A stretch of DNA of 64,000 nucleotides from Mobula hypostoma (lineage: Eukaryota), in NCBI RefSeq assembly GCF_963921235.1, contig NC_086097.1:8556001-8620000 (forward strand), given 5' to 3'. Shown piece after piece: positions 893 through 26,757 of this stretch. The notes under the pieces are model-generated. The model made no database searches. It was not told where the DNA came from and saw only the letters and a program-made list of their open reading frames with translations. The translations under genes and the position numbers were made by a program. Position 1 is the stretch's first letter, and every line of letters starts with the position of its first letter.

Positions 893-928
<36 letters not shown>

Positions 929-1030
929 CATACACACACACATATATACGTATTTACTGTAATTCACTTTTGTTTCTATTATTATGTATTGCCGCAGACA
1001 ACCCATTTCATGATATATGCCAGTGATGTA
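691..1030 (+). mobile_element. Rex1/Babar-type LINE 3' fragment
   Basis: Degenerate LLPS-RRYRSLKTHTQRFRNSFFPSAI C-terminus plus 3' UTR. The tail (gatctgattctgag) resumes at about 1622, after an insertion. Confidence 0.75.
886..948. repeat. compound (TG)n(TA)n(CA)n microsatellite
   Basis: Directly visible alternating purine-pyrimidine tract. Confidence 0.95.
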
Positions 1031-1039
1031 AACATAACT

Positions 1040-1210
1040 GGTTCCTTCAGGTTGCTATAGCTGGAGGTGGCAATGGGGACAAGCTCCCACTACCTACTAA
1101 ATGCTCCTAACGGCCTACGCTTCAAATAGCTTCTGACAGCCAAGTCCAGATCCTGGCCTTCCCGTGTGGTTTAGCTACTAAGCCCGCGGAACTGTTTCGA
1201 CTGACGGGAG
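1040..1210 (+). ncRNA. HDV/CPEB3-like ribozyme fold at the 5' end of family A
   Basis: P1 GGTTCC(1040-1045)/GGAACT(1188-1193) with a G1-U wobble; P2 TCCTG(1151-1155)/CGGGA(1205-1209); P3 GCC(1156-1158)/CGC(1185-1187, one mismatch); L3 TTCCCGT plus a hairpin; GT after P1; J4/2 C1201-T-G-A. Confidence 0.65.
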
Positions 1211-1620
1211 AAGGGGCAAAGGTGGGTTACTGTTGCCTTAAAACCAGTTGCTTTGATCCAGATGGGTCTCATCAGCTGTGGTTGGCAGCTCATCTAGTAG
1301 AAGGAAAACCCTGATCTCAAACATCTGCTGCCTTGTGGCTATAACCACTCAAGGGGAAGGCTTTGGGAGTAAACCTCAAGGGAAAAATCCAGAGATAAGG
1401 CAGTCCTACATTGAGTTCAATGCTGGCAGGTAACTCCTGCAATGCTGCTGGTGCCAAACTGTTTACCACTGCCGTTCCTTTGCGTTCATCAGATGCATAG
1501 AGAGGGGGAGCTTGCTACATAGGCTACAGCTTGCTCTCCATATTGTCCTGCCCAGGCTTGTGTATCTGGACAGTTAAGATACAATATCGCTGGTCAATGC
1601 TGACCGATGGAGGCCCTCAC
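1040..1620 (+). mobile_element. non-coding RTE-related retroposon, family A, copy 1
   Basis: About 580 bp inserted in a Rex tail. It is colinear end to end with 25714-26288 (-), both copies start GGTTCCTT, and there is no transposon ORF. Confidence 0.7.
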
Positions 1621-1767
1621 CATTAGATCTGATTCTGAGTCTGTGTGTACGTTACGATGTCTACTCGTGTACATGCCAGCAGTCACTGGCCAATGGCTAA
1701 TGGCTAGGTACTTGAGAATGGAACAAGTCGAGATTACTTGCTCTTTACACTGCATCAAAGCTAGTCA

Positions 1768-1955
1768 GTGGTGTTGTGGCATCCACACTGGACTTTGGGG
1801 TGAGTGGTTCTGGATTCAAAAGCGACAGGCTCCCTGCACGCTTCCCATCCATGCTAGATTGAGTGTCGAGCTAGCAACTCGGACTCACAAAACAGACAAC
1901 TGCTAAAGGAACAGCATGGCTTCTGCCCGATTCGCCAATAGGCATGGATTAAATT
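1768..1955 (+). mobile_element. short tRNA-head SINE with RTE-derived body
   Basis: A/B-box-like head, then GAGTGTCGAGCTAGCAACTC (RTE 5'UTR-like motif). Homologous to 9520-9700 and 60828-60960. Confidence 0.6.
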
Positions 1956-25303: not shown

Positions 25304-26757
25304 CAGTAGATTCCGGTTAATTAGGACAGATCGGGACCAGTATATTTTGGCCCAGTTGAGTAGCCGCCCCAATCAACTTTTATGGAAATAGTTAAAAAAG
25401 TATGAAAAAGACAAACTACCATTTAAAATTACATATTTAAATGAAATACAACACAAGTAAGAACACTAGCAATACTACTACACTGCTATAAAACTGTGTA
25501 TTAGTTCCTAATAGTTATCAATAGAGGAAGTCATCTAGTATATACATTCTTTTGATTGATTGTAAATGAACAAAATCAGTGCAGACAACTAGTGTAGATA
25601 ATGGACTGCCTTCATCTAATACTATCAAGATGTTGTGGTGTCTAATGGCCATGGAAGTGGACGTGACCGATGCTAGTTTGGCAACAGTCTTCTACCCCAA
25701 TTACATAGCATAGTGAGGCCTCTGACAGTCAGGGTCAACCGTGGATGTTGCGTGTTAGCTATCTAGATACATAATCCTGGACAGTACAACATGGAGAGCA
25801 AGCTATTGCCTATGTAGTAATCTCCCCCTGTCCATGCAGCTGATGAATCCAAAGGAACAGGAGAAACCAATATAACTTGGCAGCAGCAGCATTGCAGGAG
25901 CTGCCAGTTGGTCTTGAACTCAATGTAGGACTGCCTTAGGGACGGCAGCACTGGAGATTTCCCTCAGGATTTATTCCCAAAGCTTTCCCCATAAGGAGGT
26001 ATAGTCGCAAGGCAGTGGAGGTTTGAGATCAGAGTTTCCTTCTCCTAGATGAGCTGCCAACCACAGCTGATGAGCTGCATCTGCCCAAAGTGACCAGTAA
26101 CCCATCTTTGCCCCTTCTCCTGTTAGTAGAAACTGTTCTGCTGAGCTTTGTAGCTGAGCCACACATGAAGACCTGGTGCTGGATTTGGTTGTTAGAGGCT
26201 ATTTGAGATACACACCATTAGGAACAGTTCTAAGGTAGTGGGAGCTTGTCCCCATTACCACGCCCGGCTATAACAACCTTAAGGAACCAAAGTGGCACAG
26301 TGCCCCAAATAAAAGAGGGGAATCCTGGCTATTTTCTCAATTCATTTTATTCTTTAAGAGTTGTTCCAAATAAGCAACTGACTCAATAAACCAATGGCTC
26401 ATTTAAGACTATAAGAATATAAGACCGTAAGATTTTGTAGCAGAATTAGACCATATAGCTCATCAAGTCTGCTCCAACATTTCAACATAGCTGATGCATT
26501 TTCCCTCTTAGCTTCAATCTCCTGCCTTCTCCCTATATCCCTTCATGCCCTGACTAATCAAGATTCTATCAAACTCTGCCTTAAATATACCCAATAACTT
26601 GGCCTCTACAGCCACCTGTGGTAATGAATTCCACAGATTCACCACTCTCTGGTAAAGAAACTCCTCCTTATTTCTGTTCTAAATGGACATCCCTCTTTTC
26701 TGATGCTGTGTCCCCTGGTCTTAGACTTCACCACTATAAGAAACATAAAACGTACTG
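25304..26757. mobile_element. Tigger/pogo-like MITE hosting two later insertions
   Basis: TA|CAGTAGATTCC at the left end and TACTG|TA at the right end. Interrupted by 25714-26288 and by a CR1 3' end at about 26407-26745. Confidence 0.5.
25714..26288 (-). mobile_element. non-coding RTE-related retroposon, family A, copy 2 (decayed HDV-like fold at 26288-26117)
   Basis: Colinear with 1040-1620. Retains GGTTCC, L3 TTCATGT, a hairpin relic and C-T-A-A-CAGGAG. Confidence 0.7.

Follow-up and report, generated by a model that had tools for sequence, protein, structure and literature searches.

A candidate CPEB3-type ribozyme at the 5' end of an abundant non-coding retroposon in a cartilaginous fish

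The genome of Mobula hypostoma carries a retroposon, here termed family A, whose first ~172 nt probably form, or derive from, an HDV-like self-cleaving ribozyme of the CPEB3 type. Judged from the sequence, this reading is given a probability of roughly 65%. It is very likely that the head has an HDV-type fold, whether by descent or by convergence, and the odds that the consensus RNA would cleave in vitro are put slightly above even. Family A is a non-coding element of ~580 bp with thousands of copies, target-site duplications and a single sharp 5' end at the base called G1. The two copies found in the window (the whole 64,000-nt stretch of DNA that was analysed) and the parts of the head of copy 1 are listed in Table 1.

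HDV-like ribozymes that free non-LTR retrotransposons from read-through transcripts are known in insects, in trypanosomes and in R2 elements; the type of system, a ribozyme-headed non-LTR retroposon, is already known. The CPEB3 ribozyme is commonly treated as a mammal-only oddity of obscure origin. What is new here is the host group, the cartilaginous fish, and the presence of a CPEB3-type core on retroelements. The scaffold is also new, as it combines a hairpin between L3 and P3', a G1-C pair, a closed J1/2 of 104 nt and the lack of P4. In a full-text literature search, no paper was found that links sharks or other cartilaginous fish to HDV-like ribozymes.

Table 1. Copies of family A in the window and parts of the ribozyme-like head of copy 1 (window positions)
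Feature	Position	Strand	Remarks
Family A copy 1	1040..1620	+	Delimited by pairwise comparison with copy 2, genome copies and contig depth
Family A copy 2	25712..26288	-	G1 at 26288; L3 is TTCATGT from 26169
P1 5' strand, GGTTCC	1040..1045	+	5' end of the family; predicted cleavage would make G1040 the first base of the RNA
J1/2, 105 nt	1046..1150	+	In the consensus a closed domain; closing helix 1050-1057 with 1134-1141
P2 5' strand, TCCTG	1151..1155	+	Consensus CTCCTG from 1150
P3 5' strand, GCC	1156..1158	+	Based on window letters, consensus and cross-family pairing
L3 core, TTCCCGT	1159..1165	+	Consensus TTCACGT, the L3 of Rfam CPEB3; contigs have A at 1162
Hairpin insert between L3 and P3'	1166..1184	+	Stem GGTTTAG/CTAAGCC (7 bp), loop CTA
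P3 3' strand, CGC	1185..1187	+	Consensus GGC; 1-nt deletion relative to consensus
P1 3' strand, GGAACT	1188..1193	+	Consensus GGAACC
P1.1 partner G1194, then short linker replacing P4	1194..1200	+	GTTTCGA; consensus GTTTCTA
J4/2, C-T-G-A	1201..1204	+	C1201 is the candidate catalytic cytosine
P2 3' strand, CGGGAG	1205..1210	+	Consensus CAGGAG

The two window copies are 82% identical. Their similarity starts exactly at GGTTCC, with unlike flanks directly upstream, so that both copies (1040 and 26288) begin at the same G1, as the original prediction had stated. When the 3.48-Gb host genome was searched with a 601-nt family A query, at least 9,884 candidates were returned, of which the best 40 were scored; all of these were copies with 81-83% identity. 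Copy 2 as query was 78-81% identical to its matches (39 listed). A 17-mer from the consensus hairpin has 2,052 exact matches in the genome, compared with 0 for a control, and it is intact in 14 of 30 sampled copies; together, these values imply several thousand copies of family A. The mean divergence of the 30 copies from their consensus is 9.4%.

The 5' boundary is sharp across the genome. Among 29 non-self loci, 24 start no more than 3 nt from G1, three start 9-16 nt downstream of it, and two align 6 and 11 nt upstream; no alignment reaches further, and the outcome that would have refuted the original prediction, copies extending upstream of GGTTCC, did not occur. Exact flank duplications of at least 8 nt were found at 6 of 30 family A loci and in 2% of shuffled flank pairs. 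At loci L019 (12 nt) and L008 the duplication adjoins G1, which identifies G1 as the first base of the element. Contigs assembled from three runs of the same species, which are contigs and not RNA ends, have depth within 1041-1634 and almost none outside, with a step up at 1041. At the other end, copies finish in ...GGAGGCC(C)TCA followed by a few repeats of the CTCA or GACTCA type, and the 3' terminus of copy 1 reads ...GGAGGCCCTCA(CC).

Some further features of the insertion sites can be mentioned. The base directly 5' of G1 is T in 13 of 19 family A copies that retain GG (hand count on the flanks of L001-L030), and wherever the duplications are clear this T belongs to the target sequence, which suggests a target-site preference of the partner enzyme of family A. 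Locus L063 (1384-2336) holds a family A copy with an unrelated insertion of ~410 bp after the head; it had appeared as the single head-only match in the search for a partner LINE and was rejected there, being a copy split by insertion. Just 5' of copy 1, a (TA)n/(CA)n microsatellite occupies positions 860-955 of the window. Rfam rows for miRNAs below the threshold (mir-297, mir-466 and others) are artefacts of this microsatellite.

A consensus of family A was built from 30 copies, and the retention of each pair was counted in the same 30. Its strands follow the order of the HDV-like nested double pseudoknot: P1, P2, P3, L3, P3', P1', J4/2 and P2'. P1 pairs GGUUCC (1-6) with GGAACC (150-155) over only 6 bp, two of which are A-U; P2 pairs CUCCUG (111-116) with CAGGAG (167-172) over 6 bp; and P3 pairs GCC (117-119) with GGC (147-149) over 3 bp. 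All of the helices, the L3 motif UUCACGU (120-126) and the CNRA junction are thus restored in the consensus. After P1' come G156-U157 and a 5-nt linker where P4 would be, and then J4/2, C163-U-G-A, whose C163 is present in 29 of 30 copies. P3' adjoins P1', and the bases equivalent to U20, C22 and G25 can be recognised. HDV-like ribozymes have a short L3 of 7-9 nt; here, however, 20 extra nucleotides, which form a hairpin at 127-146, separate L3 from P3'. To our knowledge, a hairpin in this place has no precedent among HDV-like folds. A GGC within the hairpin is another possible P3' strand; L3 would then have 9 nt, but an 18-nt bulge would precede P1'.

The G1-U wobble expected of HDV-like ribozymes is absent from the family A consensus, in which G1 pairs with C. 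At the partner position, 155, 19 of the 30 copies have C, 8 have T and 2 have A. With the next base, 156, it forms a CpG, which through decay reads TG in 8 copies and CA in 13, and so the wobble of copy 1 is secondary. For P1.1, 16 copies have G and 13 have A at position 156, and its partner C122 is kept in 29.

J1/2 of the consensus has 104 nt, and positions 11-102 make up a domain closed by an 8-bp helix, the pairs of which are retained in 25 to 29 of the 30 copies. This closed domain and P1 are both present in the minimum free energy (MFE) folds of the consensus and of the near-consensus copy L006; P1 does not form in the MFE fold of copy 1. MFE stability is not raised relative to shuffles, with z = -0.95 for L006 and z = -0.71 for the window copy.

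In copy 1 itself, all of the bases cited in the original prediction are found at their window positions. P1 has 6 pairs, including the G1040-T1193 wobble, with GT next at 1194-1195, and P2 joins TCCTG (1151-1155) to CGGGA (1205-1209) with a T1154-G1206 wobble. In P3 the single mismatch that had been noticed, C1158 opposite C1185, goes with a 1-nt deletion relative to the consensus, and the consensus of 30 copies restores GCC/GGC, as had been foreseen. The L3 that had been deduced from the two window copies, UUCACGU, is indeed that of the consensus and of the RF00622 consensus. Two points of the original prediction need revision. The G1-U wobble is real in copy 1, but the consensus has G1-C, from which the wobble arose through the CpG decay described above. 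The letters of the 7-nt L3 were read correctly, but the hairpin (20 nt in the consensus) between L3 and P3' was overlooked; with the 19 nt at 1166-1184, the loop closed by P3 in copy 1 has 26 nt, not 7. Copy 1 is damaged in P3', by the deletion, and in L3, where A has become C. Both window copies have decayed by ~9-10%, so that they should be inactive and are not expected to cleave.

CPEB3-type heads occur elsewhere in the same genome, and the comparison with them is the deciding evidence for the reading given here. A whole-genome search with RF00622 at E<=10 gave 43 matches among the best 59 of ~172,000 candidates; ten exceeded the 35-bit cut-off, the best with 43.8 bits. All ten of these loci are heads of one other repeat, family 1 (members L031-L041, L049 and L050). 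Two copies of it, L049 (1-3200) and L050 (1-3220), are ~3.15 kb long and carry an (AAG)n tail, and L049 encodes an endonuclease (Exo_endo_phos_2) and a reverse transcriptase (RVT_1). This length, coding content and tail identify family 1 as a LINE. Its ribozyme head lacks P4, Rfam aligning 7 nt there compared with 21 in CPEB3. The same sequence precedes the LINE-type ribozyme at L038, L046 and L047, with an identical junction at L038 and L047; judged by eye, it may be the reverse strand of a LINE reverse-transcriptase region, and the arrangement may reflect a chimera that recurs or a site favoured for insertion. A third family is represented by L042:401-462 (+) and L045:400-461 (-), which score 26.5 and 22.2 bits on RF00622. 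It has UUCAUGU or UUCAUAU as L3 and a short P4. The unit lies directly 3' of a tRNA-like SINE and the poly(A) of that SINE, and its own 3' end is poly(A); the two may form a composite element. The HDV_ribozyme model, RF00094, gave 0 matches in the whole genome (best 84 of ~46,579 candidates).

The heads of the three families were compared by aligning 26 family A cores, 11 LINE heads and 2 third-family heads with MAFFT, without structure input. The 20-nt insert of family A falls exactly between L3 and P3', and the remainder is collinear across the three families. Family A and the LINE head are identical at 7 of 7 positions of L3 and at 7 of 8 positions of the GUUUC(A/U)AC that follows P1', and C163 of family A stands in the column of the LINE-head base that Rfam aligns as the catalytic C. 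The CPEB3-like label first given to the element is borne out by the L3 match and by this register with a LINE head that lies above the RF00622 cut-off. Active-site sequences can converge among HDV-like ribozymes, as described in PMC3774820, and the identical L3 is for this reason not proof of common descent. In J4/2, family A (CUGA) carries a G; the corresponding base is A (C-N-A-A) in the LINE head, in the third family and in the Rfam CPEB3 consensus.

Pairing is also conserved on this alignment. The proposed helices pair in 87.7% of cells, compared with 73.1% in shuffles (0 of 500 as high), and with slid partners the value is 29-51%. Between families, both sides have changed in 7 of 7 P2 pairs and 2 of 3 P3 pairs, a covariation that comes from about three lineages and concerns a structure derived from the same sequences. 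The P1 sequences differ yet pair in each case: GGGGCC/GGCCCU, GGUUCC/GGAACC and GGGUC/GACCC. Covariation, which the original prediction had proposed to look for in the family consensus, is therefore seen in P2 and P3 across the three families. Within family A, the pair counts of the 30 copies give scattered loss only; covariation is not expected there, since the copies decay neutrally.

Family A thus resembles the LINE in its P4-less core, its nearly identical unpaired core bases, its collinearity and the coincidence of G1 with the element's 5' end. The LINE, unlike family A, is autonomous and has a 2-nt J1/2, no insert at L3, a G1-U wobble and an (AAG)n tail. Its 20-nt head marker has 25 exact genome matches, against the 2,052 of the family A hairpin 17-mer; family A is far more abundant than the full-length heads of the one ribozyme LINE examined. 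Family 1 was rejected as the partner LINE, as its body and tail have no similarity to those of family A. Tail-only matches, and head-only matches other than the split copy L063, were absent from 248 kb of sampled loci, and the best 40 genomic tail matches have query starts of 1-21, which are compatible with either a LINE 3' end or a family A copy. An autonomous partner with the head or tail of family A was accordingly not found in the one LINE, the 248 kb of loci and the best 40 tail matches.

Covariance models do not detect family A. Rfam searches of the window, at the gathering score and at E<=10, and of six better-preserved copies returned no HDV-type match for it; family A falls below the RF00622 gathering score of 35 bits, with nothing even at E<=10 in the window and the six copies. 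A further model, R1, was built from 13 sequences of LINE and third-family heads and was run with filters off on 27 family A loci. It gave 10 weak matches (E 0.78-9.5), none of them in the proposed register, and the best of them place the P2 of the LINE on a small local hairpin. A pattern search that allowed other spacings from L3 to the linker gave 225 matches, compared with 886 in the reversed control; those listed are mostly family A copies with small deletions. L065, L073 and L081 were rejected as further ribozyme families, as no fold was found on inspection.

The 5' end of family A has no other visible explanation: no small-RNA-derived head, no A or B box promoter and no Pfam-matching reading frame were seen. 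The largest start-codon ORF inside copy 1 encodes 51 aa. Consensus positions 167-538 (window ~1205-1576) contain a stop-free frame of 124 codons with no Met before codon 109, and 13 of 30 copies have some open frame of at least 100 codons; a Pfam search with the stop-free frame of three copies, at E<=1, found no match. Together with the copy number and the duplications, this agrees with the early description of a non-coding retroposon family. Rfam at E<=10 on window positions 900-1800 found no small-RNA match (tRNA, 5S, 7SL), and ARAGORN found no tRNA in the element. The consensus contains no A box, and its sole B-box-like word is at position 385. It also contains no TTTT run, so that transcription by Pol III is possible.

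Whether such a fold could be accidental was judged with an HDV-type descriptor anchored at nt 1. The consensus fits it; the full form fits 2 of 20,000 dinucleotide shuffles and the helices-only form 641 of 20,000, figures that serve as a guide only, as the descriptor was composed after the element had been inspected. On both strands of the window, the unanchored descriptor gave 4 G-start matches at 2 places, and, owing to the defect in P3, copy 1 does not fit the strict form. It is very improbable that the resemblance arose by chance, from accidental pairings in the structured 5' region of an ordinary SINE-like element. The ease with which shuffles yield the helices, the post hoc descriptor and the non-significant MFE z-scores would all fit such an origin. 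It is opposed by the rarity of the full descriptor, by the covariation of P2 and P3 between families, and by the agreement of L3 and of the 8 nt after P1' with the LINE head, which lie in register in an alignment blind to structure.

A different view takes the head to be a dead descendant of an HDV-like ribozyme that had lost catalysis by the time the family amplified, or lost it meanwhile, owing to the hairpin at L3, the G1-C pair and the changed J4/2; another source, such as an unrecognised internal promoter or a host nuclease, would then account for the uniform 5' end. This is unlikely, although it is favoured by three differences from the canonical core (G1-C, 20 nt inserted between L3 and P3', and CUGA), by the failure of every covariance model to match family A and by the lack of a TTTT run that would preclude Pol III. 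Against it, the consensus of this family of thousands of copies has every helix and core base intact, which argues that the master copies were constrained during amplification; moreover, neither an A or B box nor a head derived from a small RNA was found, and the 5' end coincides with the predicted cleavage site to the base. That exact 5' end at G1 would be left unexplained if the fold served mainly as a protective or protein-bound 5' structure, with cleavage incidental. IRES-like or protein-binding roles have been proposed for the heads of R2 and L1Tc, as described in PMC6765202, and the large J1/2 domain is conserved within family A; the element has no ORF to translate, however, and a role of this kind is considered quite improbable.

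Read as a ribozyme of the CPEB3 type, the head can be compared with systems already described. It shares with the mammalian CPEB3 ribozyme (RF00622) the strand order, L3 UUCACGU and the G-U after P1', as well as a 3-bp P3 adjoining P1' and a C, in family A the candidate catalytic base, that opens a 4-nt J4/2, as those features are described in PMC4836649. The CPEB3 ribozyme occurs once, in an intron, and has a P4 helix, a J1/2 that is very short, a G1-U wobble and CGAA as J4/2. Family A, in contrast, heads a multicopy retroposon; it lacks P4, has a J1/2 of 104 nt, an L3 hairpin, G1-C and CUGA, and receives no model score. In CPEB3 and HDV the G1-U wobble is described as a metal site (PMC4836649).

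The P4-less core and the J1/2 of ~105 nt, which the original prediction had offered as distinctive, are present, but they are not new, to judge from PMC3774820 and PMC4908430. PMC3774820 describes active R2 ribozymes of silkmoths that lack P4 and whose J1/2 measures 216-498 nt, and an abalone ribozyme in which P4 is replaced by 5 nt; the distance from P1 to P1' is given there as 23 to >700 nt. As in silkmoth R2 and the R2 SIDEs, where an HDV-like ribozyme sets the 5' end of a non-LTR element and non-coding derivatives ride on autonomous R2 (PMC3774820, PMC3414825, PMC6765202), the head of family A coincides with the element's 5' end. R2 and SIDEs are site-specific in 28S rDNA and are co-transcribed with rRNA, whereas family A is dispersed with varied duplications; the passages on R2 ribozymes in the three papers describe no L3 hairpin like that of family A.

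L1Tc and NARTc of Trypanosoma cruzi form a dispersed LINE with a short non-autonomous partner, and an HDV-like ribozyme is reported within the first 77 nt common to both (PMC3185411, PMC3383444). NARTc has the head and tail of L1Tc, and this head doubles as a promoter; no such partner was found for family A in the sample described above. A structured J1/2 domain joins P1 and P2 in ribozymes of the drz-Agam-2 type (PMC4908430), and the J1/2 of family A closes with an 8-bp helix. The drz-Agam-2 type belongs to insect elements and has P4 and measured activity, whereas family A lacks P4 and its activity is a prediction. According to the same paper, large HDV-like ribozymes are faster when a stable helix in J1/2 draws P1 and P2 close to each other, which fits the closed J1/2 domain of family A.

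The route that we infer for family A begins with master copies that would have no promoter of their own and would be read through from neighbouring transcription. The ribozyme would cut directly 5' of G1 and so release an RNA that starts at the first base of the element. Some LINE reverse transcriptase may recognise the 3' end with its short CTCA-type repeats and copy the RNA into new sites, where target-site duplications would arise. Read-through, cleavage and LINE copying are thought to be the route for R2, L1Tc, baggins and RTE and for their non-autonomous riders, as set out in PMC6765202.

The current work shows that this genome carries ribozymes of the CPEB3 model on an autonomous LINE, and on a commoner non-coding element the same core in an expanded scaffold. 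It is conceivable, though rather doubtful, that the CPEB3 type is an old lineage of vertebrate retroelements, persisting in cartilaginous fish on LINEs and their parasites, of which the mammalian CPEB3 ribozyme would be an exapted head, and that the HDV fold is active with G1-C and with a helix between L3 and P3', a peripheral domain that is not known from earlier descriptions. If the head of family A cleaves, this helix and the G1-C pair would be added to the architectures of the HDV fold. There would then be a vertebrate non-coding retroposon that owes its 5' end to a ribozyme and not to a Pol III promoter, and a concrete candidate for the source of the CPEB3 ribozyme.
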